A stretch of DNA of 64,000 nt, from assembly GCA_041662965.1 (NCBI GenBank), contig JBAZRI010000001.1:227680-291679 (forward strand). The letters run 5' to 3'. Both the position numbers and the translations under genes were made by a program. Positions 1,291 through 61,416 of the stretch are shown here, one piece after another (the stretch's first letter is position 1; every line of letters starts with the position of its first letter). This DNA comes from Patescibacteria group bacterium (lineage in GTDB: Bacteria > Patescibacteriota > Patescibacteriia > Patescibacteriales > GWC2-42-12). Below the pieces are notes generated by a model. It searched no databases and had not been told where the DNA came from. It saw nothing but the letters and a program-made list of their open reading frames with translations.

Positions 1291-1429
1291 TGTCATTGCG
1301 AGCGACTGCAAGGAGCGCGGCAATCTAACGAACTATTTTATTAAATTATAGATTTGTTTTTAACACAAAGGTTTATTATATTAAATTGTCCGTGAGATTG
1401 CTTCGTCGCTATCGCTCCTCGCAATGACA
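1291..1429. repeat. TGTCAT-hairpin palindromic element, ORF-less copy with a ~60-nt AT-rich core
   Basis: Ends are TGTCATTGCGAGCGACTGCAAGGAGCGCGGCAATCT ... GAGATTGCTTCGTCGCTATCGCTCCTCGCAATGACA. It lies in the convergent rplU/recR spacer. Confidence 0.85.
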
Positions 1430-4963: not shown

Positions 4964-6301
4964 ATGAAAAATATTAAAATAAAAATTTATACCTTAGGCT
5001 GTAAAGTTAATCAGTATGATTCGGGTAAACTAGCCGGCGAGCTGGTTCGGGCCGGCTTTATAACCGCGGACAAAAACGCCGATATAGCCGTAATCAATAG
5101 CTGCGCCGTGACTAAAACTGCCATAATTAAAAGCGGCCGCATGGTTAAATTGGCTAAAAAAGAAAACCCCAAAGCTAAAATCGTTTTAGCCGGCTGCTGG
5201 CCGAAAACCTATGGAATAAAGAATATTGCCGCTGATTTTATTATTGCCAAAGGCGAGGTCGGCGAGGCTATTAAAAAAATTGCGAATCGCTTCTCTCTAT
5301 TTAAGGATAAGATCTTTACGCCGGCTATCGCCGAGCTCGCGCTAACCGGCCGGACAAGGTATTTTATAAAAATTCAGGACGGCTGCGAGCAGTATTGCAG
5401 TTATTGCGTTATCCCTTACGCGCGCGGCAAATTAATTAGCAGGGGAGAGAAAGAAATTATTCGCGAAATTGAACGGGCGGTAAAAGCCGGATATCGGGAG
5501 ATCGTGCTGTCCGGAATCCATTTAGGGTTGTATGGAAAAACGAGCCAATTGTCATTGCGAGCGACCGGAGGGAGCGAAGCAATCTCACGTACTCGGAGCT
5601 TAACCGGAGATTGCCGCGTCGCTGGCGCTCCTCGCAATGACAAGCTGACGGCATTATTAAAAAAATTAGTTAAAATAAAAGATCTCGGCCGGATCAGGTT
5701 AAGTTCAATTGAAATCACCGAAGTATCGAGCGAGCTGATAAATTTAATGGCCGGGTCAAATAAAATTTGTAAGCATCTGCATATACCATTGCAGTCCGGC
5801 TCGGATAAAATTTTAAAATTAATGAATCGGCCATATGATGTAAAATATTTTTCTGGCCGGATAAAAAAAATTAGGCAAATTATGCCGGATATTGCCATTA
5901 CTACCGACGTGATTACCGGCTTCCCGGGCGAGACCGAGAAAGATTTTAAAGACACGGAAAAATTTATTAAGCGGATAAAATTCAGCCGTCTGCATGTGTT
6001 TCCATATTCGGCTCACGAAAAAACGCCGGCCGCTAAATTCCCCGGCCAAGTTAAAGAAAAAAATAAAGCGCAACGGGCGGAAAAATTAAGGCGGCTTGGC
6101 CTTAAGCTGGCTGAAGATTATAAAAAGAAATTCAAGGGCAGGGAGCTGGAGATTACCGTGGAGCGGATAAAGCAAGATGAAATTATCGGTAAAACCGAGT
6201 TTTATTTTGATATTTTATTTAAAAAGCGACAGCTTATCGGCGGAGAAGCCAGCCAAAGTAAAAAATTAATAGGCACGATTGTTAAGGTAAAAAACAATTA
6301 A
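4964..6301 (+). CDS. mtaB: MiaB/MtaB-family radical-SAM tRNA methylthiotransferase carrying an in-frame repeat insertion
   Basis: MTTase N-domain (IYTLGCKVNQYDS), radical-SAM cluster (GCEQYCSYCVIPYARG) and a TRAM-like C-terminus. Residues LSLRATGGSEAISRTRSLTGDCRVAGAPRNDK are encoded by a palindromic repeat. Confidence 0.85.
   Translation: MKNIKIKIYTLGCKVNQYDSGKLAGELVRAGFITADKNADIAVINSCAVTKTAIIKSGRMVKLAKKENPKAKIVLAGCWPKTYGIKNIAADFIIAKGEVGEAIKKIANRFSLFKDKIFTPAIAELALTGRTRYFIKIQDGCEQYCSYCVIPYARGKLISRGEKEIIREIERAVKAGYREIVLSGIHLGLYGKTSQLSLRATGGSEAISRTRSLTGDCRVAGAPRNDKLTALLKKLVKIKDLGRIRLSSIEITEVSSELINLMAGSNKICKHLHIPLQSGSDKILKLMNRPYDVKYFSGRIKKIRQIMPDIAITTDVITGFPGETEKDFKDTEKFIKRIKFSRLHVFPYSAHEKTPAAKFPGQVKEKNKAQRAEKLRRLGLKLAEDYKKKFKGRELEITVERIKQDEIIGKTEFYFDILFKKRQLIGGEASQSKKLIGTIVKVKNN
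5550..5642. repeat. TGTCAT-hairpin palindromic element inserted in frame inside the mtaB-like CDS
   Basis: 93 bp (31 codons), TGTCATTGCGAGCGACCGGAGGGAGCGAAGCAATCTC ... GAGATTGCCGCGTCGCTGGCGCTCCTCGCAATGACA. Near-identical in layout to 58563-58654. Confidence 0.85.
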
Positions 6302-6456: not shown

Positions 6457-7371
6457 ATGGAATTTAAAGATTATTTAGGGCTAATAAGCAGGAAGAAAAT
6501 GACAATATTTTTAATTGTTATGTTTTTTTTAATATTAGCTTTAATTTTAACGTTCATTCAACCATTAAAATACGGTTCTACTTCCAGAATTATAGTAATT
6601 CAAAATTTTGACGTAGATACCGACCCTTATGCTATTTCCAAGTCTAATGAATATTTAAGCAATATATTAGCTAACGTGGTTACCTCTAGTTCATTTTTTG
6701 ATGATATTTTGGAATCCGGATATCATATTGATAAAAATTATTTTTCAAAGAATAATAATATTAATGGCGAGATGAAGAAATGGCGGGAAACTGTTCAGGC
6801 TAAAGTTGTCGGTGATACCGGTATTATTGAAATTAATGCGTATCATCCGGATAAAAGACAGCTAGACTTGATCGCCTCGGCGGTAAATTATGTTTTGCAA
6901 ACTAAAAACGGGCAATATCATGGCATGGCAAGCAATGTTGTGATTAGAATAATTGATAAGCCGATTATTTCTTTATGGCCGGTTAGACCAAATATTATAT
7001 TTAATCTGGCGCTGGCAATCGTTTTTGGTCTACTTATTTCTTTTTCTTACATTTATTTATTCCCGGAAGATAGGTATAACTTAAGATTATGGTCAAGATC
7101 GAATAGAAAAAAAATAGAAGAGCAAAAAATATCCAGCGTCCAGCCAGCTGATATAAAGAATCAATGGGAAGATTTAGGCGATGCAAAAAAATATACTGAA
7201 GAGAATCTGAATAGCGATGATTTAGAAATACCCGGCGAAGAAAGCGCTAGTTATAAATCTTTATCTTCTGATGATTTGGATAATAATTATGGCGGGAATG
7301 AACCTCAAGATATTTCCATAAAAGGAAGCATAAATAATATTTTCAGAAATCCAAACCGGGACGATTTTTAA
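6457..7371 (+). CDS. Wzz-like polysaccharide chain-length determinant protein with an acidic C-terminal tail
   Basis: N-terminal TM after LISRKKMTIF, a second TM near residue 200 (IIFNLALAIVFGLLISFSYIYLF), and a periplasmic-type middle domain. Low-GC gene. Confidence 0.55.
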   Translation: MEFKDYLGLISRKKMTIFLIVMFFLILALILTFIQPLKYGSTSRIIVIQNFDVDTDPYAISKSNEYLSNILANVVTSSSFFDDILESGYHIDKNYFSKNNNINGEMKKWRETVQAKVVGDTGIIEINAYHPDKRQLDLIASAVNYVLQTKNGQYHGMASNVVIRIIDKPIISLWPVRPNIIFNLALAIVFGLLISFSYIYLFPEDRYNLRLWSRSNRKKIEEQKISSVQPADIKNQWEDLGDAKKYTEENLNSDDLEIPGEESASYKSLSSDDLDNNYGGNEPQDISIKGSINNIFRNPNRDDF

Positions 7372-14453: not shown

Positions 14454-15426
14454 ACAACCTCGCACCGCGACTTTAGCCGTAACTTATAGATGCAATTCAC
14501 GTTGCCGGATGTGCAATATCTGGCGAAGTAAAATTGCCGACAGCCTAAAGCCGGCTGACTATTTAAAATTGCCGAAAAGTTTAAATGATATAAATATTAC
14601 CGGCGGCGAACCATTTTTAAGGGATGATTTATTAGAGATATTGGATAGTATTTTTAAAAGATGCAACCCTGAAAGATTGGTTATTTCATCCAACGGTTTT
14701 TTAACCGACCGGATAGTCGGTCTAGCTAAAATAATCTTAAAGCGTAGCTATGCCGACCGCGTTATTATCGCTTTGTCTCTGGACGCTCTAGGCAAAAAGC
14801 ATAATGAAATCCGGGGAGTCGTTAATGCTTTTGAACTGGTTATTAACACAATAACCGAATTAAAAAGAATCGGCTTTAATAATATCGGCCTAGGTTTTAC
14901 TTTTATCTCCGGGAATGAAGATCAGTATTTACCCGTCTATGAATTCGCCAAGAAGAATAACTTAAATTTCGGCGCGACTATCGCCCATAACGCGGAAAAT
15001 TATTTTTCTACGGACAATAATGAAAAACCTGATTATAAAATAATTAAAAAGCAGACTGATTATTATATTGGTGAAAAAATAGAATCGTTTAAAAAAAATG
15101 AGCTGGGCAAATGCTATTATATGCATGGCTTAGCTTATTATGCCAGGACGGGGAAAGCGTTAGTTAATTGTGACGCTATGCGCGGGTCATTTTTCATAGA
15201 TCCGCGGGGCAATATTTATCCCTGTAATATTTTAACCGATATCGCCGGCAATTTACTTGAGGCAGATTTTAAGAATATTTGGCAAAGCCGGGCGGCTGAT
15301 AAAATTAGATGTAAAACAAAAAATTGTCCGACTGCCTGCTGGATGGTCTGCACGGCCAAGCCGGGGATAAAAAAACACTGGCTAAAAACAGGGCTTTGGT
15401 TAATTAAACGTAAATTGAAGCAATAA
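14437..15426 (+). CDS. Radical SAM / SPASM-domain protein (paralog 2 of 3)
   Basis: CNSRCRMC cluster motif, GGEPFL. C-terminal IDPRGNIYPC ... CKTKNCPTACWMVC. Overlaps the upstream gene by 17 nt. Confidence 0.75.
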   Translation: MKIINKQPRTATLAVTYRCNSRCRMCNIWRSKIADSLKPADYLKLPKSLNDINITGGEPFLRDDLLEILDSIFKRCNPERLVISSNGFLTDRIVGLAKIILKRSYADRVIIALSLDALGKKHNEIRGVVNAFELVINTITELKRIGFNNIGLGFTFISGNEDQYLPVYEFAKKNNLNFGATIAHNAENYFSTDNNEKPDYKIIKKQTDYYIGEKIESFKKNELGKCYYMHGLAYYARTGKALVNCDAMRGSFFIDPRGNIYPCNILTDIAGNLLEADFKNIWQSRAADKIRCKTKNCPTACWMVCTAKPGIKKHWLKTGLWLIKRKLKQ

Positions 15427-15429
15427 AAT

Positions 15430-16533
15430 ATGTTTAATAAACATAAAACAATTAAATACGGTAAAATTGCTTTAGCCAAATTAAAGAATATATTTGTTGG
15501 CAATATTTATTTAAGGACAGGATTATTTATGCCCCGGCCGACTAAATTATATTATTTGATGTCAAATAAATGTAATTTTCGCTGTCAAATGTGCCCGCAA
15601 TGGAAAATCGGAGAAGGTGAAAATATTAGTGGTTATATTAGCGAAAACAGAATTAAAGAGATAATTAAAGAAATGGCAAAATTAAAAATTTTTGAATTTG
15701 GAATTTCCGGCGGCGAACCTTTAATTTTTAAAGACAAATTATTAAGGCTGTTAAAATATGCTAATGAGCAAGGTCTCTATACCCATTTCGCGACCAACGG
15801 CAGCTTATTAACCGAAGAATTTTTAGAAAAATATGATAACTTCGGCGGCGGCCATATTTCACTGTCTTTGGACGCGGGCGAAATTTTACATGACAGCTTG
15901 CGCGGATTCCCCGGCGCTTATAAAAACGCCATGGCAGTGATGAAAATATCCAGCGGTAATAAATATAAAAATATAAATTTAAAAATTAACATTACGTTGA
16001 CTAATGAAAATTTAGATGAAATAAGCCCCTTGCTCATGAAAGCAAAAGAAATTGGCGCGATGGTTTTTATCCAGCCTTATGATGCCTACGATTACGGCAA
16101 TAAAAATATAGATTATAAAGAAAATAATTATCCATTATGGGTTAAAAAAGAAAATTATTTTAAATTAAAAAAATTAATCAGTAAATTATTAGAATTTAAA
16201 AGAAAAAATCCGGAGATATTATTAAACGACGAAAAACACTTGAAAGTTTTTTATAGTTATTTTACCGATAGCAATTATTCAGCCAAGTGCTATGCCGCCA
16301 TAGACCAAGTAACTATAGATCCTTTCGGCAATGTGATATTATGTAAATTCGGAAAAATTGTTAATTTGCGTGACACCAGCTTAAAGGATTATATATATAG
16401 CAAAAAAAGAAAAGATATCGTTAAGGCCAGCCTGCAATGCGGTGAAGGTTGTTTGCTTGGTTGTATGTTTAAGCCAAGTCTTATAGATTTAATCAGACAC
16501 GGAAGCAAGCAGTTCTTTAAATTAATAAAATAA
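15430..16533 (+). CDS. Radical SAM / SPASM-like protein (paralog 3 of 3)
   Basis: CNFRCQMC cluster motif, SGGEPLI. C-terminal IDPFGNVILC ... LQCGEGCLLGC. 3-nt gap from the upstream gene. Confidence 0.75.
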   Translation: MFNKHKTIKYGKIALAKLKNIFVGNIYLRTGLFMPRPTKLYYLMSNKCNFRCQMCPQWKIGEGENISGYISENRIKEIIKEMAKLKIFEFGISGGEPLIFKDKLLRLLKYANEQGLYTHFATNGSLLTEEFLEKYDNFGGGHISLSLDAGEILHDSLRGFPGAYKNAMAVMKISSGNKYKNINLKINITLTNENLDEISPLLMKAKEIGAMVFIQPYDAYDYGNKNIDYKENNYPLWVKKENYFKLKKLISKLLEFKRKNPEILLNDEKHLKVFYSYFTDSNYSAKCYAAIDQVTIDPFGNVILCKFGKIVNLRDTSLKDYIYSKKRKDIVKASLQCGEGCLLGCMFKPSLIDLIRHGSKQFFKLIK

Positions 16534-16595
16534 AAAAAGCGGACAGGGACAAGAATTTTTCTTGTGTATCCGCAATTGAGTGCCTACTTGTTGGT

Positions 16596-17090
16596 TTATT
16601 CGTTTAAAAAACCAGTAGGATCAGTACAAACTTTATAGTTTTGGGGAGATTGCAGTTTCTTATTAAGTAAATAATTTTTGCCGCCTTCTTCTCCCCTGAG
16701 GATCACGATAGCATCTGTTACTTTGTAGCCTTGCCATTTATTCTCCGGTCGTGGCGAATAGTGTGTGTAGTATATAGCATCTACTATATCTGCTATATCT
16801 ACAAATTCAATTTCCTCTGTCTGCTGGCCCTGGTAGCGAACTATAGTATATTCGATGTCATGATATTTTTGCATACTGTCTGTTTTCCACTCAGCAGGTT
16901 CCTGGTCGCAGGCTACTCCACAAACAACGACATAATAGTCTGGTTTAGGGAAATAAGAAAGCATTTCTGAGGTACTGGCGCCCTTGTTAACTTTTTTTAT
17001 CTCTTCTGAAGCGTAGGAAATTGAGCACACAACACTTACAAAGAGAACAATCGCCAAAAAAATACTTACGTTACGGATTTTCTTAAACAT
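16596..17090 (-). CDS. Secreted hypothetical protein
   Basis: SD GGGAGG 7 nt upstream, signal peptide MFKKIRNVSIFLAIVLFVSVVCSISYA. Composition differs from the neighbouring low-GC genes. Confidence 0.5.
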   Translation of the reverse strand: MFKKIRNVSIFLAIVLFVSVVCSISYASEEIKKVNKGASTSEMLSYFPKPDYYVVVCGVACDQEPAEWKTDSMQKYHDIEYTIVRYQGQQTEEIEFVDIADIVDAIYYTHYSPRPENKWQGYKVTDAIVILRGEEGGKNYLLNKKLQSPQNYKVCTDPTGFLNE

Positions 17091-34116: not shown

Positions 34117-34247
34117 TGTCATTGCGAGGAGACTTGTAATCAAGTCGACGAAGCAATCTCTGGTTAAGTTCAGAGTACGTGAGATTGTGAAGTTTATCCC
34201 GAGCGATAGCAAGGGACCTGCATTCCTTTCAGTCGCTCGCAATGACA
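34117..34247. repeat. TGTCAT-hairpin palindromic element, ORF-less copy in a divergent promoter region
   Basis: TGTCATTGCGAGGAGACTTGTAATCAAGTCGACGAAGCAATCTC ... GAGATTGTGAAG ... CAGTCGCTCGCAATGACA. Confidence 0.8.
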
Positions 34248-40511: not shown

Positions 40512-40593
40512 TGTCATTGCGGGCTTGACCCGCAATCCAGAAACTTGTTAATTGCGATTAAACATGGATTCCGGCTCGTAGGCCGGAATGACA
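40512..40593. repeat. TGTCAT-hairpin palindromic element (variant stems) in the clpB 5' leader
   Basis: TGTCATTGCGGGCTTGACCCGCAATCC ... GGATTCCGGCTCGTAGGCCGGAATGACA. Confidence 0.75.
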
Positions 40594-43620: not shown

Positions 43621-44089
43621 TGTCATTTCGACCGAAGGGAGAAATCTATAATACAAGGAAAGCGCTTTATTATGCGAAAAGAATACCAATTTTTTGTTTA
43701 TATTTTAAGCAATTACGAAAGAACAACTTTATATGTAGGTTTTACTAATAATATAATAAGGAGAATGATTGAACATAAAAACGGCCTAGGCTCTAAGTTT
43801 ACTAAATTATACAAGTTAACAGATTTACTTTATTACGAACAACACCAATATGTTAACGATGCCATTTCCAGAGAAAAAGAAATAAAAAAATGGCGTCGCG
43901 AAAAAAAGATTAATTTGATAAAATCAAAAAATAAAATGATGAATGATTTAAGCGATAAGTTATTTTCAGAATATGATATTTCCGAAAAAGAAATTAAAGA
44001 TTATGTAGGTAGTTTAAAAAATAATTGATATATTAGTTTAAGTATTAACCTATTATAGATCTCTCCTCCCTGTGGTCGTCGAGATGACA
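43621..44089 (+). mobile_element. GIY-YIG gene bracketed by inverted TGTCAT-hairpin termini (candidate autonomous element, copy 2)
   Basis: Left end TGTCATTTCGACCGAAGGGAGAAATCTAT (43621-43649). Right end ATAGATCTCTCCTCCCTGTGGTCGTCGAGATGACA (44055-44089). Confidence 0.6.
43672..44028 (+). CDS. GIY-YIG nuclease family protein (118 aa)
   Basis: FFVYILSN..TLYVGFTNNIIRRMIEHKNG ... AISREKEIKKWRREKKINLIKS. Paralog of 53371-53667. Confidence 0.8.
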   Translation: MRKEYQFFVYILSNYERTTLYVGFTNNIIRRMIEHKNGLGSKFTKLYKLTDLLYYEQHQYVNDAISREKEIKKWRREKKINLIKSKNKMMNDLSDKLFSEYDISEKEIKDYVGSLKNN

Positions 44090-44121: not shown

Positions 44122-45603
44122 ATGAGCAATATCAGAGTTCGTTTCGCTCCATCGCCGACCGGTTTCCTGCATATCGGCAGCTTAAGGCCGGTTTTGTTTA
44201 ATTATCTGATAGCGAAAACTTTAAACGGTGAATTGATTTTAAGGATTGAGGACACGGACCAAAAAAGGGAAGTTCAAGGCGCGGTTAAAGGCTTAATTGA
44301 TATTTTAGACTGGGTGGGCATAAAATTTGACGAAGGGCCGCATGTTGGCGGCGGATTCGGGCCATATACCCAATCGCAAAGGCTGGAAATTTATAAAGAG
44401 CATATTGAAGCGCTTTTAAAAAAGGGCGAGGCTTATTATTGTTTTTGCACTTCTGAAAGATTAACCGAGATGCGCGAGCGCCAGCAGGCGGAAAAAAAAC
44501 CGCCGCGCTATGACCGCGCCTGCCGCGAGCTCGCCAAAGAAGAAGTTGAGAAAAAAATTAAAGCCGGAGAAAAATTCGTTATCAGGCAAAAAATGCCTGT
44601 GGGCGGAGAAATTATTGTCCATGATGAACTGCGCGGCGATATAAAATTCGCGGCCCGCGATCTGGAAGACCAAGTTTTAATAAAATCAGACGGCATGCCG
44701 ACTTATCAATTCGCTAGTGTAGTTGATGATCATCTTATGGCCATCAGCCATGTCTTAAGAGGCGATGAATGGCTTTCCAGTTTCCCCAAAAATATTTTAT
44801 TATATAACGCCTTCGGCTGGCCAGCGCCGAAATTTATTCACCTAACCTTAACTTTAAATAAAGAAGGCGGTAAATTAAGCAAGCGCCAGGGCGACGTAGC
44901 GGTTGAGGATTACCGCTCTAAAGGCTATCTGCCCGAAGCTCTATTGAATTTTTGCGTCTTGCAGGGCTGGCATCCTTCGGCGTCGGCTAAAGCGCCAAAA
45001 GAAAAAACCGATGAAATTTTAAATTTGGATGAAATGATTGAATATTTTGATTACAAAGATATGGGGATCAGCCCGGCGGTTTTTGACATAGAAAAATTAG
45101 ACTATTTCAACGGTTATTATATCAGGCGGATGTCATTGGAAAAATTAACTAAATTATGCCTGCCGTTTATGGGCGAAAATTTGAAATTAACTCGCGATAC
45201 AAGAAAACAAGCCAATGATTTTATGGAAAAAGTTATCGGGCTGGAGCAGGAAAGGCTTAAGAAATTATCCGAGATAGGGGAGTTGACAAAGTTCTTTTTT
45301 TTGGATAATCTTGAATATCCGGAAGAAATGCTGATCTGGAAAAATTTAACTCTTAAGCAGGCGAAAGCGAACCTTAAAGAGCTGGCCGCTTTGCTTGAAA
45401 AAATTCCCGAAGCCGACTGGTTGAAAGAAACGATTGAAAAAACTCTGCTTGATTACATTAAAGACAAAGGCGCTAAAAACGGCGATTATCTCTGGCCTTT
45501 GCGCGTAGCGCTTTCCGGCCAAAAATTCAGCCCGCCGCCTTTCGCCATCGCCGCGATTCTAGGCAAAAAAGAAAGTTTAGATAAAATTAATAAAAATAAA
45601 TAA
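44122..45603 (+). CDS. gltX: Glutamyl-tRNA synthetase
   Basis: RVRFAPSPTGFLHIGSLR (HIGH-type motif), KLSKR motif. Start moved to MSNIRV. Confidence 0.95.
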   Translation: MSNIRVRFAPSPTGFLHIGSLRPVLFNYLIAKTLNGELILRIEDTDQKREVQGAVKGLIDILDWVGIKFDEGPHVGGGFGPYTQSQRLEIYKEHIEALLKKGEAYYCFCTSERLTEMRERQQAEKKPPRYDRACRELAKEEVEKKIKAGEKFVIRQKMPVGGEIIVHDELRGDIKFAARDLEDQVLIKSDGMPTYQFASVVDDHLMAISHVLRGDEWLSSFPKNILLYNAFGWPAPKFIHLTLTLNKEGGKLSKRQGDVAVEDYRSKGYLPEALLNFCVLQGWHPSASAKAPKEKTDEILNLDEMIEYFDYKDMGISPAVFDIEKLDYFNGYYIRRMSLEKLTKLCLPFMGENLKLTRDTRKQANDFMEKVIGLEQERLKKLSEIGELTKFFFLDNLEYPEEMLIWKNLTLKQAKANLKELAALLEKIPEADWLKETIEKTLLDYIKDKGAKNGDYLWPLRVALSGQKFSPPPFAIAAILGKKESLDKINKNK

Positions 45604-45632
45604 AAAAATCCCGAAAGGGGAAGGGGGATGAC

Positions 45633-45893
45633 ATGAATTACGAGGAGTATTTGTTCTTTTTATTTTCAATTTTTTTTGGCATTTACTTGATGGGCAGAGG
45701 ATTTTCTTCTGAAACGCTCTCTCTAACGTGTGCAATATTTGGATTATTTATTTTCTTTTTTGCCTTCATGAATTTATTATTTTTAGGGCCAGGAAGCAAA
45801 GTGGCTACCATGCCGGCGGATATATTTTTCGCGGTGGTAGCTGGAATGTTAATAGCGTGGGCCTTTGGAAAGACAATCGAAAGGAGGACATGA
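45633..45893 (+). CDS. Small membrane protein (86 aa, 3 TM)
   Basis: G-rich SD GGGGAAGGGGGA upstream. Hydrophobic segments. The stop overlaps the next start (ATGA). Confidence 0.45.
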   Translation: MNYEEYLFFLFSIFFGIYLMGRGFSSETLSLTCAIFGLFIFFFAFMNLLFLGPGSKVATMPADIFFAVVAGMLIAWAFGKTIERRT

Positions 45894-47579: not shown

Positions 47580-48023
47580 ATGGATTTAATAGAACATTAT
47601 AAAAAAGTCCAAACAGCTTGCGACTGCGCTTTAAAAATAATTGGCATTACCAAGCTTAAATTCAGGCCCATGCGCCGCCAAGACGACCACGTTAATACCA
47701 AGCGTGGTTTTGTTATCGGCCGGACGAATTTAAAAACCGGCCTGATTACGATTGATATTTTTACGCCGAAGTTCAGAAAGCCAAAAAAAATTTCTTCAAT
47801 TTTAAGGACGCTAGCCCATGAAGCCGCGCATCATCAAAAACCGCCTTACCGCTCGCGGTTCAGGGGGCGGATAATAACCAGAATTCATTACCCGATATTT
47901 TATCGGCAGGTAACGAGAAATATTAAGAAGTTGAAAAAAGACAAAACGCTGGGGGAGTATTTTTCCTTGAATAGGGGATATAGGCATTTATTTTTAAAGC
48001 GGTATGCGCGTATTACTTTATAG
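47580..48023 (+). CDS. Putative zinc metallopeptidase-like protein (HExxH; SprT/DUF45-like)
   Basis: The LAHEAAHH motif in a small basic protein; weak assignment. Confidence 0.35.
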   Translation: MDLIEHYKKVQTACDCALKIIGITKLKFRPMRRQDDHVNTKRGFVIGRTNLKTGLITIDIFTPKFRKPKKISSILRTLAHEAAHHQKPPYRSRFRGRIITRIHYPIFYRQVTRNIKKLKKDKTLGEYFSLNRGYRHLFLKRYARITL

Positions 48024-48062
48024 TCATTTCAATAAATCTAAATTTCTACGGGCTTAACCTAG

Positions 48063-48107
48063 ATTCCCGCCCGCCTAGCGGACTGGTAAACCTGCGCGGG
48101 AATGACA
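48063..48107. repeat. Solo TGTCAT-hairpin unit just 3' of the metallopeptidase-like gene
   Basis: ATTCCCGC-ccgcctagcggactggtaaacct-GCGGGAATGACA. A degenerate partner aGTCATTTC lies at 48022. Confidence 0.6.
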
Positions 48108-48613
48108 ATAAAAAATTAGTCGCTTACAGCGGTAGTTATTTAAAGGGGGAATTACTATAACGGCTATACTTTTCTAATATAATAGCGTCGCACAATATAA
48201 CTTATGCGACGCCAGACTAACCTTTGATATAATCTATTTGCTTGAGTTTATGCCCGGCCTATTGAATTAACATGCCGAACAGGCTGATTTGCGGGTAAAA
48301 TAATAATATGAATTTCAATAAAAGTAAAAATAAGCCGACAATCAAAAAACAAAATACTATTACCCCTAAAATAAACAATGTTTTAAAAATTCCTTCCATA
48401 AGCTTATTGGCGCATTAAAATTTAAATGCCCGCCTGGTACCTATGTACCTTTTTAGGTTTAAATTTTAATAGGTTTATTAACATAAATTTAATTTTTTTC
48501 AATAGCCGGGTTATTTTTTCTGAAATTATGCTGTTATATAATCTCGCCTGCCTGCTTGCTACCAGTATATAACATTTTTTAATATTATGTAATTAGTTAT
48601 GTGTCGCAAAATA

Positions 48614-52885: not shown

Positions 52886-53290
52886 TTAGTTTTTTAAAAT
52901 AATAGATGTTTTGTATTTATGCGGCATAAAAGGCCTTAATCTTACAATTTTAGTTTTTAATTTTAATCTTTTTAATTCGTTTTTAAGCCGGTCAACAAAA
53001 TTAGTTTGGTCATAGCCCAGGCAGATTATATTCGGCCGGTATTTTTTAATGGCGCTGTATTTATCGGTTAGACTGCCTAATACCGCTTTAGACGCCAATT
53101 TTAGGCCTTTAATCGCCTCTAGGCGCTGTTTTTCGCTATGCTCGGGCAATTTGCCTTTAACCTTTAAAACCGTGCTGTTGCGGGCAATAACAACGATTAG
53201 ACAATCGCCATATTTTTTAGCCTGTTTTATAAAGTTGATATGCCCGGGATGCAAAATATCAAATGTGCCGAAAATCATAACAATTTTCAT
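52886..53290 (-). CDS. Cytidylyltransferase-like nucleotidyltransferase (RibL/FAD-synthase-like)
   Basis: FGTFDILHPGHINFI (HxGH). Start moved to MKIVMIFG because the upstream residues are repeat-encoded. Confidence 0.65.
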   Translation of the reverse strand: MKIVMIFGTFDILHPGHINFIKQAKKYGDCLIVVIARNSTVLKVKGKLPEHSEKQRLEAIKGLKLASKAVLGSLTDKYSAIKKYRPNIICLGYDQTNFVDRLKNELKRLKLKTKIVRLRPFMPHKYKTSIILKN

Positions 53291-53296
53291 TTTTAT

Positions 53297-53740
53297 TGTC
53301 ATCCCGAGTGAGCGCATCTGCCAATCGGCAGATGAGCGACGAGGGATCTCGTTAAATGCAATAATGTAAATTATAAAAAATCTATTATTAAGTCTTTAAA
53401 TATTAAGTTGTTACTTTTTATTAAGTTTATTTTCTTTTCTCTGCGCCAGCCTTTTAATTCTTTTTCTCTGGAGATGGCGTAGCTAATATCATTAAATATT
53501 TCATAATAAACTAATTTATTGATATTGTACTTCGCGGTAAAACTTTTTGGAAATTTTTTATTTTTATGTTCATAGCAGCGGTTCAATAGATTATTGGTAA
53601 CTCCGATATAAAATCGTTTATTATTGATGTTAGTTAAAATATAAATATAGTAAGTATATTCTTTCATCTTTAAATTATATTATCATTTTATCGCGCTTTG
53701 CCGAGATCCCTCTGCCGCTGAAGCGGCATTCGGGATGACA
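53297..53740 (-). mobile_element. GIY-YIG gene bracketed by inverted TGTCAT-hairpin termini (candidate autonomous element, copy 1)
   Basis: TGTCATCCCGAGTGAGCGCATCTGCCAATCGGCAGATGAGCGACGAGGGATCTCG (53297-53351) and CGAGATCCCTCTGCCGCTGAAGCGGCATTCGGGATGACA (53702-53740). Confidence 0.65.
53371..53667 (-). CDS. GIY-YIG nuclease family protein (98 aa)
   Basis: YYIYILTN..RFYIGVTNNLLNRCYEHKN ... AISREKELKGWRREKKINLIKS. Confidence 0.8.
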   Translation of the reverse strand: MKEYTYYIYILTNINNKRFYIGVTNNLLNRCYEHKNKKFPKSFTAKYNINKLVYYEIFNDISYAISREKELKGWRREKKINLIKSNNLIFKDLIIDFL

Positions 53741-53743
53741 TTA

Positions 53744-55201
53744 TTATTTCGGCCGCATCAGCGGGAAAATTTGGCATTCTCTCATGGATCTGTCCATTAA
53801 AAAAGCAAAGACGCGCTCCGACATGCCAAAGCCGCAAGCCGGCGGCATGCCGTATTCTAAAGCTTCCACAAATTCAGCATCAAACATCTGGGCTTCTTCG
53901 TCCCCTGCTTCCCTTAATTTAGCCTGCTCTTTAAATCTTTCAACCTGGTCTAAAGGATCATTAAGCTCGCTATAGCCGTTGCCTAGTTCCGAGCCGGCGA
54001 TAATCACCTGAAATCTCTGGCTTAATTCCGGATGTTTCTCATCGCGCTTAGCCAAAGGCGAGACTTCAATCGGCACGCCGGTTAAAAAGCCCGGGCCGGT
54101 GATTTGCTTACGGCAATATTTCCATAAATTATCAATGGCGCGAGTTTTATTAAAGCCTTTTTTATCATATTCCACGCCCAGTTCTTTTAGTTTTTTTTCA
54201 ATCTGTTTTATATCCGTAGCTAAAATATCAACGCCCGTATATTTTTTTACGGTTTCGCGGTAATCATAGCGCTCCCAGGTTTTCCCCAAATCAACTGCAA
54301 AATTTTTAATTTTAAATTTAAGCGCGCCGAAAGTTTCCTCGGCCGCGTATTTAAACAGCTCTTCAACCAGTTTCATGCCGGCTTCATAATCGGCGTAGGC
54401 CCAATAAAATTCCATATGCGTGTAATCCTGCAGATGCTCGGCGTCCATGCCTTCATTGCGAAAAACTCGCCCAATCTCAAAAGTTTTTTCAAAACCCGCG
54501 ATCATCAGCCGTTTTTGCCATAATTCGCCGGCGCAAATACGCAGATAAACATTCATATCCAAAGCGTTATGATGAGTTAAAAAAGGCCTGGCGTCGGCGC
54601 CGCCGGCGGTATTCTCCAGGACCGGAGTTTCAACTTCCAAAAAATTTTTCTTAATTAAAAAATCCCGGATAGACTGCCAAAATTTCGCGCGTTTTATAAA
54701 TATGTCTTTTACCTCGCTGTTAAATAAAATATCCAAATAGCGTTTTCTCAATAGCTCTTCTTCGTCCGATAAACCGTGCCATTTTTCCGGCAGGGGCCGG
54801 ACGGCTTTGGCTAAGAGCCGCCAATCTTTAACCATAACGCTTTTTTCACCGTTATGGGTTAAAAAGGCCGTGCCGGAGATTTGCGCGAAATCGCCGATGT
54901 CAACGTATTTTGAAAATATTTTATAGCTCGAGTCGCCAATTTCTTTTTTAGAAAAAGCCAGCTGGATTTTACCGCTACCGTCTTCCAGATGGGCGAAAGT
55001 AAGATTGCCGTGGGCGCGCAGGCTTCTTAGCCGGCCGGCTAATTTCAATTCAACTTCGCCTGATTGCAATTTTTCAAAATCAGCCAGAACGTTATTCACA
55101 AAGATATTCTTTTCCGCTTTGGCCGGGTAAGGGTTGACGCCTAATTTTTTTAATTCCGCTAATTTTTTAAGCCGGTCCTCGCGCTCGCTTGTTTTTATCA
55201 T
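53744..55201 (-). CDS. lysS: Lysyl-tRNA synthetase, class II
   Basis: OB-fold N-domain. FLEVETPVL, FRNEGMD, and GGFGMSERVFAFL-type motif 3 (ACGFGMSERV). Confidence 0.95.
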   Translation of the reverse strand: MIKTSEREDRLKKLAELKKLGVNPYPAKAEKNIFVNNVLADFEKLQSGEVELKLAGRLRSLRAHGNLTFAHLEDGSGKIQLAFSKKEIGDSSYKIFSKYVDIGDFAQISGTAFLTHNGEKSVMVKDWRLLAKAVRPLPEKWHGLSDEEELLRKRYLDILFNSEVKDIFIKRAKFWQSIRDFLIKKNFLEVETPVLENTAGGADARPFLTHHNALDMNVYLRICAGELWQKRLMIAGFEKTFEIGRVFRNEGMDAEHLQDYTHMEFYWAYADYEAGMKLVEELFKYAAEETFGALKFKIKNFAVDLGKTWERYDYRETVKKYTGVDILATDIKQIEKKLKELGVEYDKKGFNKTRAIDNLWKYCRKQITGPGFLTGVPIEVSPLAKRDEKHPELSQRFQVIIAGSELGNGYSELNDPLDQVERFKEQAKLREAGDEEAQMFDAEFVEALEYGMPPACGFGMSERVFAFLMDRSMRECQIFPLMRPK

Positions 55202-58562: not shown

Positions 58563-58654
58563 TGTCATTGCGAGCGACCGCAGGGAGCGCGGCAATCTCA
58601 CATACGTGGGATTTAACCAGAGATTGCTTCGTCGCTGCGCTTCTCGCAATGACA
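58563..58654. repeat. TGTCAT-hairpin palindromic element, ORF-less copy between GT4 and GT2
   Basis: TGTCATTGCGAGCGACCGCAGGGAGCGCGGCAATCTCACATACGTGGGATTTAACCAGAGATTGCTTCGTCGCTGCGCTTCTCGCAATGACA. Confidence 0.85.
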
Positions 58655-59803
58655 GTGAGAGAATGTTATTGCTTTATATATTTTTTTAATCTGTTTTTCC
58701 CAATTAAATTCTTTGATCGCTCGCTCTCTCCCCTGCTCGCCTAATTTTTTTCGCAGTCCGGGATCCCGGGCTAATTTAATGATAGCCGAAGCGATTTGCT
58801 CCGTATCTTCGGGATCAACTAAGAGGCCGTTTAAGCCGGCTATTACGGCGTCGCCGACTCCGCCGCTTTTGCCGGCTATTACCGGCTTGCCGGCCAGATT
58901 AGCTTCCAGATAAACTAGGCCAAAGCCCTCAAAATCGCCGTTAATATTTCGGCTAGGCATAATAAAGATGTCGCTGGCATTATACCAATTATCGCGCTCC
59001 TTGTCCGTAGCTTGATTTATTATTATAACTTGTTTTTCCAATCCCAAATTTGAAATTTGAAATTTTAAATTTTTTAATTCGGCTCCGCCGCCTAAAATAA
59101 TATAAATTAAATTCGGCGCTTGTCTTAGCGCTTCCGGCAGAGCTTCTATGACTTTATCAAAACCTTTGCGTTTTACCAGCCTGCCGACCGATAATAAAAT
59201 TATTTTATCGGTTAAATTATATTGTTTTTTTAAAGCAGAAATTTTTTCCGGCGCCGCCGGCCGCGCCGGCTCAATCGCCGGGTTAACGACGGCTATTTTA
59301 TCCGCGCTTAACGGGAAAAATTGTTTGGTTAAATTCGCCGTGTAGCCGTTTAAGCAAATTATTTTATGGGTATTAGATAAAATTTTTTTAGCCAGCCATT
59401 TTTTTCTGGGTTTCTTCAAGGCGTAAGTTAAATCCATGCCGTGTAAAAATACCGAATATTTTATTTTAAAAAATTTGGCGCAAATCAACGCGGCCGCGCC
59501 TAAGGGCAAAATTTGGCCGACTAAAATATGCTCGATTTTTTCTTGTTTTATTTCCCGCCGCAAAGCGAAATAAGCCGGCAGCCATTTTAACAGCGGCAGT
59601 TTATTATTAATCAAGCGCCCATCCTTGTTATCAAGCACGGAAATTTCGTCCGGCTTGGGCTTGCCCTCCGACTTGTCCGCCAAAGCTTTAGCGTCGGTGG
59701 AAGCTTTAGCGAAGGAGGGCCAGTATTTTACCAGATTACCGTAATAATTGGCCACGCCGCCATGAAACGGCGGATATTCTAATGTAAATAATAGAGTTTT
59801 CAT
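58613..59803 (-). CDS. Glycosyltransferase family 4 whose last ~14 codons and stop lie inside a palindromic repeat; also carries an internal repeat-encoded insert
   Basis: GFGLVYLEANLAGKPVIAGKSGGVGDAV motif. The C-terminus ...FSHCHCEKRSDEAISG is repeat-encoded. The FAKASTDAKALADKSEGKPKP insert lies near the N-terminus. Confidence 0.8.
   Translation of the reverse strand: MKTLLFTLEYPPFHGGVANYYGNLVKYWPSFAKASTDAKALADKSEGKPKPDEISVLDNKDGRLINNKLPLLKWLPAYFALRREIKQEKIEHILVGQILPLGAAALICAKFFKIKYSVFLHGMDLTYALKKPRKKWLAKKILSNTHKIICLNGYTANLTKQFFPLSADKIAVVNPAIEPARPAAPEKISALKKQYNLTDKIILLSVGRLVKRKGFDKVIEALPEALRQAPNLIYIILGGGAELKNLKFQISNLGLEKQVIIINQATDKERDNWYNASDIFIMPSRNINGDFEGFGLVYLEANLAGKPVIAGKSGGVGDAVIAGLNGLLVDPEDTEQIASAIIKLARDPGLRKKLGEQGRERAIKEFNWEKQIKKIYKAITFSHCHCEKRSDEAISG
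59663..59720. repeat. GCCCTCC...GGAGGGC palindromic repeat inside the GT4 CDS
   Basis: gccctccgacttgtccgccaaagctttagcgtcggtggaagctttagcgaaggagggc. A related sequence (gcccgcctcgctaaagctatggcggacaagccggc) lies at 25675-25712. Confidence 0.65.
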
Positions 59804-61291: not shown

Positions 61292-61392
61292 AAAATATGT
61301 TAATATTATAGCTTATTTTTAATAAAAATAAAACCCCGTTTTTTAAACAAGGTTTTATTGTATATTTGATATTTGTATATTATAAATTCTGG

Positions 61393-61416
61393 ATTCCCGC
61401 CTACGCGGGAATGACA
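61393..61416. repeat. Solo TGTCAT-hairpin unit immediately 3' of rpsI
   Basis: ATTCCCGC-ctac-GCGGGAATGACA, 5 nt after the rpsI stop. Confidence 0.6.

Follow-up and report, generated by a model that had tools for sequence, protein, structure and literature searches.

GIY-YIG nuclease genes bracketed by outward-facing hairpin repeats in a Patescibacteria genome: very probable members of the published Ssn/SRM system

Introduction

Single-domain GIY-YIG nucleases whose genes are flanked by hairpin repeats were described in 2025 under the name Ssn, and the repeats are known as NTS or, in generalised form, as the Ssn-related motif (SRM) (Chenal et al., 2025, Nat Commun 16:2388, PMC11893778). Patescibacteria are absent from the main text of that paper. 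Here we report on a 64,000-nt stretch of a Patescibacteria contig (JBAZRI010000001.1, positions 227,680 to 291,679; hereafter the window), in which a 444-bp module at 53297-53740 carries a small GIY-YIG nuclease gene between inverted hairpin units beginning with TGTCAT, and a second module at 43621-44089 repeats the plan. Both loci are very probably members of the Ssn/SRM system. An earlier note on this DNA, made from its letters, had not recognised the arrangement as a described element type. This was wrong: the architecture, NTS-ssnA-NTS or SRM, is in PMC11893778, and the module is not a new type of element because the nuclease/hairpin-repeat system was published in 2025. What is new is the host group, an uncultured Patescibacteria genome, and the repeat units are variant.

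SsnA of Neisseria meningitidis (NMV_0044/NMB0047) has 94 residues and belongs to CDD cd10448 (GIY-YIG_unchar_3); its repeat, the Neisseria NTS, has the sequence CGTCATTCCCGCGMAVGCGGGAATCYRG and extends the dRS3 palindrome in an oriented way (PMC11893778). The SRM is tied across phyla to one gene, ssnA: at least one SRM lies near 71% of ssnA homologs, and 42% are flanked by SRMs on both sides (PMC11893778). Purified SsnA binds NTS as single-stranded DNA only, and not as double-stranded DNA, as RNA or as the reverse strand. Cleavage, established for four homologs, is likewise restricted to single-stranded DNA and falls on one strand a few nucleotides upstream of the unit, with no activity on double-stranded DNA or RNA (PMC11893778). 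Binding depends most on the C right after the palindrome and cutting most on the three bases 5' of it; the loop can be dispensed with, and activity is lost when the stem sequence is changed with pairing kept. Mutation of Y6, Y17 or E64 abolishes cleavage by SsnA. The homologs in N. elongata, in N. wadsworthii and in Wolbachia pipientis act alike, with partly distinct specificities, and in N. meningitidis the enzyme reduces transformation by NTS-bearing DNA (PMC11893778).

The Discussion of that paper reads NTS-ssnA-NTS as the architecture of an insertion sequence, compares it with IS200/IS605 and with transposases associated with REP/BIME, and proposes domestication; mobility was not tested (PMC11893778). 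The parallel with REP and IS200/IS605 elements offered by the earlier note had thus already been drawn. Our literature search found no follow-up publication on the mobility or structure of Ssn.

Results

The window proteins are homologs of SsnA

The gene of the 53297-53740 module encodes 98 amino acids, and its paralog in the second module encodes 118 and is 49% identical to it. Both proteins match PF01541 (residues 6-81 and 7-81, respectively; E values in Table 1), and the only other Pfam match is a weak overlapping one to T5orf172, at or below its cut-off, so that both are bare catalytic domains without a DNA-binding extension. In NCBIfam, which returned no specific model, the only similarity was a sub-threshold one to TIGR01453 (group I intron endonuclease; E 2e-4 over the N-terminal 35 residues), with scores of 21.3 and 16.3 bits against a cut-off of 56.05, confined to the first 35-40 residues. 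A PDB sequence search with the window protein returned no relatives, and no match to the HUH family was returned for the associated gene, which is a GIY-YIG gene.

A tblastn search of PLSDB (7.3 Gb) with the 98-aa protein matched a chromosome of N. gonorrhoeae with E 1e-12, where the working homology criterion of the published study is E < 1e-10. The matched protein, a 94-aa ortholog that carries Y6, Y17 and E64 and is itself surrounded by CGTCATTCCCGC...GCGGGAATC repeats, served as our comparator in place of the N. meningitidis protein itself. In BLASTP the 98-aa protein is 41% identical to it over 91 aa (E 1e-26) and the 118-aa paralog 40% over 88 aa (E 5e-23). Both window proteins align with it end to end, and Y9, Y20 and E68 of the 98-aa protein fall opposite Y6, Y17 and E64. 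As an aside, PLSDB lists among its plasmids two N. gonorrhoeae chromosomes that are complete (2.17 Mb). One of them is NZ_CP119140.1, in whose ssnA locus (L083, 1250-1950) the nearest NTS units face inward.

Hairpin units bracket both genes and recur without them

Each window ssn gene has one hairpin unit on each side (Table 1), and both modules share the unit plan of TGTCAT, stem, hairpin, stem and CTC. The unit at 53297-53350 reads TGTCATCCCGAG-hairpin-GAGGGATCTC or, extended to 53351, TGTCATCCCGAG, the 8-bp GC hairpin and GAGGGATCTCG. Its partner at 53703-53740 reads, on the minus strand, TGTCATCCCGAA-TGCCGC-TTCA-GCGGCA-GAGGGATCTC, and ends in GAGGGATCTCG when taken from 53702. A repeat finder returned an outer pair of arms for this module (53294-53310 and 53727-53743) and an inner pair (53341-53356 and 53697-53712), each 88% complementary, and equivalent outer and inner arms for the module at 43621-44089. 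The anatomy given in the earlier note therefore stands, as does its recurrence around a paralogous gene.

The window contains the motif TGTCATNNC 17 times, where 2.0 occurrences are expected; none of 100 shuffled sequences reached that count. Fourteen of these occurrences form seven inverted pairs, namely the two gene-carrying modules and five doublets of 82-139 bp that lack an open reading frame (ORF); two solo units complete the set of copies without a gene, whose existence the note had also proposed. Stems vary between units (ATCCC, ATTGC, ATTTC, ATCTC and ATTCC) and are complementary in every copy, again as the note had read them. The units keep the features found critical by Chenal et al., GTCAT before the stem and C right after it. 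A loose scan for GTC, any 5-bp stem and C was noisy (33 hits, 13.7 expected), and from it the hits starting with YGTCAY alone were retained as units.

Comparison of unit coordinates with the ORF lists of the examined stretches placed all 17 window units in intergenic DNA or at gene ends. They occur in either orientation relative to adjacent genes, and also far from any ssn gene. The two solo units share the core ATTCCC-N8-GGGAAT, which is the stem of NTS and the core of Neisseria dRS3; dRS3 has been described as a bare 20-bp palindrome, whereas the window units add the oriented GTCAT and C flanks by which an NTS/SRM is defined.

Table 1. Positions of the nuclease genes and hairpin units of the window, and of ORF-less units that differ among relatives (window coordinates unless a relative is named; letters A-E mark polymorphisms)
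Feature	Position	Strand	Match or occurrence in relatives
ssn gene, 98-aa single-domain GIY-YIG nuclease (Ssn family)	53371..53667	-	PF01541 E 1.1e-16
Second ssn paralog, 118 aa	43672..44028	+	PF01541 E 8.7e-14
SRM unit, 3' side of 98-aa gene, TGTCAT outward; ATCCC/GGGAT stem around 8-bp GC hairpin	53297..53350	+	
SRM unit, 5' side of 98-aa gene, TGTCAT outward; ATCCC/GGGAT stem around 6-bp GC hairpin	53703..53740	-	
SRM unit upstream of 118-aa paralog, ATTTC/GAAAT stem	43621..43648	+	
SRM unit downstream of 118-aa paralog, ATCTC/GAGAT stem	44056..44089	-	
ORF-less inverted doublet, ATTGC type	1291..1429	.	
ORF-less inverted doublet, ATTGC type; retains subterminal TTAACCGGAGATTGC of the L084 full-length ATTGC-type ssn module	5550..5642	.	
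ORF-less inverted doublet, ATTGC type, right unit degenerate	34117..34247	.	
ORF-less inverted doublet, ATTGC + ATTCC stems	40512..40593	.	E: missing at the site in L087/L088
ORF-less inverted doublet, ATTGC type	58563..58654	.	A: missing in L081 and L082
Solo SRM unit, ATTCCCGC stem with branched interior	48060..48107	-	
Solo SRM unit, TGTCATTCCCGCGTAGGCGGGAATCCA, near-identical to Neisseria NTS consensus	61390..61416	-	B: present in L081 with compensatory C-G to T-A; missing in L082
Doublet in L082	~7000-7100		C: missing in window and L081
Doublet in L001	2767-2937		D: missing in window, L081 and L082

The ATTGC doublets at 1291-1429, 5550-5642 and 58563-58654, and the one at about 7000-7100 in the relative L082, have asymmetric left and right units. 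The left interior is always GAGCGAC...GGAGCG and the right always GAGGAGCG...AGCGACG, short blocks recurring in permuted order in a manner reminiscent of the distinct REP types in BIMEs.

Two candidate signals near the units were set aside. A hairpin at 45594-45633 (minus strand; TGTCATCCCC...GGGA followed by a T-run) contains TGTCAT and lies just past the end of gltX; it is terminator-like and was not counted. An outward promoter-like site at 53302-53274 (minus strand) is made up of the terminal ATGACA, a 17-nt spacer and TATGAT; it has 10 of 12 matches and a TG extension and points at the neighbouring gene, and such a site is not above shuffled expectation. A cytidylyltransferase-like gene at 52886-53317 (minus strand) has a longest ORF that begins within the left hairpin unit. 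It was called at 129 aa in one relative as against 143 here; its true start is probably the methionine of MKIVMIFG near 53290, and the overlap with the unit is likely an artefact of ORF calling.

The units are concentrated at ssn genes across phyla, and their stems covary

Relatives of the 98-aa protein are encoded at 80 loci returned by a scan of species-representative genomes; these loci belong to Patescibacteria, Gammaproteobacteria, Clostridia, Bacteroidota, Acidobacteriota, Verrucomicrobiota, Chloroflexota, Melainabacteria, Fibrobacter and others. At 45 of them the gene has TGTCA no more than 250 bp away on one side and TGACA no more than 300 bp away on the other, and nearly all of these 45 read TGTCAT-YCYGA-variable-GARGRATCT. 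Under a stricter definition of the unit, density fell from 4.20 per kb in the 300 bp next to the ORF to 0.32 per kb beyond, a 13-fold difference, and outward-facing units stood on both sides of the gene at 46/80 loci. The link between nuclease and repeat suggested by the earlier note is thus borne out.

Sites were then taken by TGTCAY alone, which keeps the stem test from being circular: 90 of 105 (86%) were followed by a 5-bp stem and then C, compared with 2.2% of random positions. With the 3' side anchored on the first ATC only, 81 of 98 sites have a triplet after TGTCAT that exactly complements the one preceding this ATC, with 8 different triplet pairs, where partner-shuffled controls gave a mean of 16.7 and a maximum of 30. 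The stems covary. Upstream of GTCAT, positions -1 and -2 are constrained to T or C and nothing is conserved further out. Proteins with the same stem type were 54.4% identical, as against 52.4% (0/2000 permutations), a difference that is confounded by taxonomy and was not used as evidence for co-evolving specificity.

We folded the units as single-stranded DNA and expressed stability as z relative to shuffled sequence. The NTS-like and ATCCC units exceed shuffled sequence (z -2.6 to -4.1). The unit at 53703-53740 (-10.2 kcal/mol, z -2.6) forms its outer stem, and in the minimum-energy fold of the unit at 53297-53350 (-15.4 kcal/mol, z -4.1) the inner hairpin is paired and the ATCCC/GGGAT outer stem is not formed. 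Whole doublets fold as long hairpins of about -28 kcal/mol (z about -5); that at 5550-5642 is one long hairpin (-28.4 kcal/mol, z -5.1), and that at 58563-58654 gives -28.4 kcal/mol with z -5.5. The short outer stem is backed by covariation, not by thermodynamics.

Gene-carrying modules are fixed among relatives and ORF-less units are not

Syntenic contigs of relatives were available at nucleotide identities of 90-97% (L081), 82-92% (L082), 81-85% (L001) and 66-88% (L084 and L087/L088). The 53297-53740 module lies between lysS and the cytidylyltransferase gene in L001, L081 and L082, with its outer stems kept; in L081 and L082 the inner hairpin of the unit corresponding to 53297-53350 is swapped for a different hairpin inside the retained outer stem. 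The position of the 43621-44089 module, in L084 as in L087, is directly upstream of gltX. Both ssn modules thus occupy the same loci in all relatives examined, and no polymorphic gene-carrying module was found among them. Units without an ORF, by comparison, gave five presence/absence polymorphisms (Table 1), so that the insertion polymorphism considered in the earlier note holds for the ORF-less copies and not for the modules with genes. In L084 a different locus matches the left two-thirds of the doublet at 40512-40593, over 65 nt at 88% identity.

Some junctions have a few extra non-homologous nucleotides outside TGTCA...TGACA. A cut upstream of the unit could account for these, but alignments in such AT-rich DNA are not clear enough to support that claim or to fix an offset.

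L084 encodes a third Ssn paralog of 86 aa (1730-2095, JGI Ga0247841_10000344), 2 kb upstream of the one linked to gltX, and the window has no gene at that position. The termini of this paralog, TGTCATTGCGAG...GCAATCTCCGGTTAA and TAAACCGGAGATTGC...CTCGCAATGACA, are of the ATTGC type. Because the window ATTGC doublets keep the same subterminal CCGGTTAA / TTAACCGG as this full-length module, they look like internal-deletion derivatives of an ssn module.

At polymorphic site A, the doublet 58563-58654 took out the stop codon of an upstream glycosyltransferase (GT4) gene, as seen by comparing 58610-58662 (minus strand) with 3854-3892 of L081. The product in the window ends ...KAITFSHCHCEKRSDEAISG and that of the relative ...KAIT, the 16 residues in question now being encoded by 9 junction nucleotides and the repeat unit. 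The stretch 47965-48255, which contains the solo unit at 48060-48107, differs in every relative compared; at this spot L082 has 1.67 kb (15292-16961) including a phage-integrase-family gene, and L084 (7555-7618) has a doublet related to the one at 40512-40593.

Discussion

Several features tie the window to the published Ssn/SRM system: single-domain GIY-YIG proteins of 94-118 aa that are 40-41% identical between the window and Neisseria, a gene set between hairpin repeats that combine a YGTCAT 5' flank, a palindromic stem and a following C, and many further copies dispersed through intergenic DNA, one of them nearly identical to the Neisseria NTS.

A number of observations weigh against this assignment or against parts of what it entails, or set the window apart from the published examples. 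Only one of the approximately 17 window units, 61389-61416, fits the published SRM string, HGTCWYN(0-2)YYVSBRHN(0-5)WNVSBRGN(0-2)RNCYNB (0.04 expected); read by eye, 26 of its 28 positions agree with the Neisseria NTS consensus. Most of the others are 5-bp outer stems around long variable inner hairpins, with interiors of up to about 40 nt, and those of the gene-flanking units are much longer than in any tested substrate. The units nearest the N. gonorrhoeae gene face inward and those of the window genes outward, so the geometry of the family is not uniform. At least two window paralogs with different stem sequences lie within 10 kb in this metagenome-assembled genome (MAG) of Patescibacteria, unlike in the published system, and its ORF-less copies are mainly inverted doublets; most doublets are of the ATTGC type, though the window has no ssn gene bearing ATTGC-type units. 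In the ATTGC and ATTTC units the 5-bp outer stem taken alone is weak (-2 to -5 kcal/mol, z about 0) and no stabler than shuffled sequence, and within doublets the long inter-unit hairpin would compete with the fold of the unit. The five polymorphic sites gave no clean target duplication or constant junction signature and so do not define a route by which doublets are gained. Ssn activity in this lineage is itself a prediction from homology. As to the SRM string, it is a search device and not a definition. A YGTCAT flank, a paired stem and a C behind it persist in the units that escape the string, among them all four beside the genes, and we read the misses as a limit of the search string and not as a failure of membership.

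By homology with the Neisseria and Wolbachia enzymes, the window nucleases would bind their cognate unit only in single-stranded DNA. The recognised unit would consist of the YGTCAT flank at its 5' end, a short sequence-specific stem, an interior that varies and, directly behind the stem, a C, and the nick would fall a few nucleotides 5' of it, within the non-conserved flank. Because both flanking units face outward, the nicks are predicted just outside the module, one per strand, and on each strand only one of the two units would be cleavable. Candidate substrates are DNA that is transiently single-stranded, such as incoming transforming strands and lagging-strand templates; the likeliest consequences are that single strands bearing the repeats would be fragmented and that the resulting recombinogenic ends may favour gain and loss of repeats. 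GIY-YIG nucleases are hydrolases that work without a covalent enzyme-DNA intermediate. A GIY-YIG enzyme alone therefore cannot carry out cut-and-rejoin reactions of the HUH type, and since it cannot reseal what it cuts, propagation of the repeats would need host repair or recombination. That Ssn mobilises the repeats is unproven.

What such cutting is for could be understood in terms of the host only, with a domesticated Ssn acting at SRMs to restrict or shape how incoming single-stranded DNA recombines, and with repeats whose spread and decay come from ordinary recombination or transformation, unaided by the nuclease. We regard this as quite possible, if short of probable. In Neisseria, cutting limits recombination and transformation of repeat-bearing DNA (PMC11893778), and a similar limit on transformation is plausible here because Patescibacteria are considered naturally competent via ComEC and pili (PMC12455944). 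The stable, syntenic position of the ssn genes beside housekeeping aminoacyl-tRNA synthetase genes and the placement of every window unit between genes or at their ends agree with a host role. A role of this kind leaves unexplained, in turn, why the gene is so regularly bracketed by its own target and why doublets keep subterminal sequence of a full-length module, and its functional data are confined to Neisseria.

The opposite view, that the GIY-YIG nuclease is the transposase of an autonomous mobile element made up of the 444-bp module and the ORF-less doublets, much as RAYT serves REPINs and TnpA serves IS200/IS605, strikes us as rather doubtful. The same hypothesis is raised by the authors of PMC11893778. 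It is attractive for the layout with inverted ends, which resembles that of an insertion sequence, and for the doublets, which resemble deletion derivatives, are polymorphic among relatives and in the case of the 40512 type have a copy at a different locus in L084. Genomes also carry several paralogous modules: the window has two, L084 has two within 2 kb, and L002 and L003 belong to one MAG. The nucleotide similarity between the window module and L003 spans 53335-53740 of 53297-53740 with unmatched flanks, running to the outer end of one terminal unit and into the inner part of its partner. Against transposition stand the fixation of both gene modules at orthologous loci in relatives about 7-30% diverged in nucleotides and the lack of a target-site duplication or constant junction at the polymorphic sites. 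The chemistry of GIY-YIG nucleases, in which rejoining would fall to the host, also argues against it. With one cleavable unit per strand (PMC11893778), single-strand excision of the IS200/IS605 type is moreover unavailable.

Comparison with the elements invoked here sharpens these points. IS200/IS605 elements share with the window modules subterminal hairpins read on single-stranded DNA, cleavage a short distance from the hairpin and no evident target-site duplication; unlike the window modules, with their inverted ends and GIY-YIG gene, they have ends that are not inverted, both hairpins on the same strand and an HUH transposase (TnpA). The likeness to REP/REPIN-RAYT systems and BIMEs extends further: a nuclease gene in single copy between inverted hairpin repeats, inverted doublets that are non-autonomous and fold as long hairpins, repeats recognised as single-stranded DNA, and a vertically stable gene among repeats that turn over. 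The window enzyme differs from RAYT in being a GIY-YIG hydrolase and not an HUH Y1 transposase, and with no covalent tyrosine intermediate no intrinsic rejoining is expected of it. We offer only tentatively the idea that Ssn and the doublets form a mobile-element system without a covalent transposase, a GIY-YIG analogue of REPIN/RAYT. In such a system nicks 5' of outward-facing units on single-stranded DNA would leave recombinogenic ends through which doublets are copied or deleted; the doublets without an ORF would act as its non-autonomous derivatives, with the ssn gene as a long-resident helper.

It is very unlikely that the units act at the level of RNA, as terminators, mRNA stabilisers or a small RNA, with their proximity to GIY-YIG genes incidental. 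They are intergenic and form hairpins, and the TGTCAT-containing hairpin at 45594-45633 does have a T-run after it. Rfam at gathering thresholds, however, returned three tRNAs only and no match at the units, the stretch 53200-53850 has no terminator-like site, and the units lie in both orientations relative to neighbouring genes. A 13-fold association with ssn across phyla is not incidental, and SsnA does not bind the RNA version of its site (PMC11893778).

More improbable still is a free-standing homing endonuclease with the inverted units as remnants of a double-stranded target: the window proteins share the catalytic fold (PF01541) of I-TevI-type GIY-YIG homing endonucleases and a weak N-terminal similarity to TIGR01453, but at 21 bits against a cut-off of 56 and as bare domains they differ from enzymes that carry DNA-binding domains and act on double-stranded DNA, a collection of 50,697 phage records holds no homolog of the nuclease, units are dispersed far from any ssn gene, and characterised members of the family leave double-stranded DNA uncut (PMC11893778).

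With architecture and enzyme activity published in 2025, these loci carry little weight as a discovery. They place the Ssn/SRM system in the reduced genomes of Patescibacteria at high density, with about 17 units and two paralogs in 64 kb, and since the published string misses most such units, SRM counts in genomes of this kind are underestimated. Beyond the published hypothesis, the window and its relatives contribute five gain/loss polymorphisms among close relatives and an apparent parent-derivative relation of a full-length module to the doublets. Each paralog, with a stem of its own, is a candidate for a new specificity in cutting single-stranded DNA. The doublets turn over on a short evolutionary time scale while the nuclease genes stay in place, a pattern that bears on whether Ssn is a domesticated tool or part of a mobile element.

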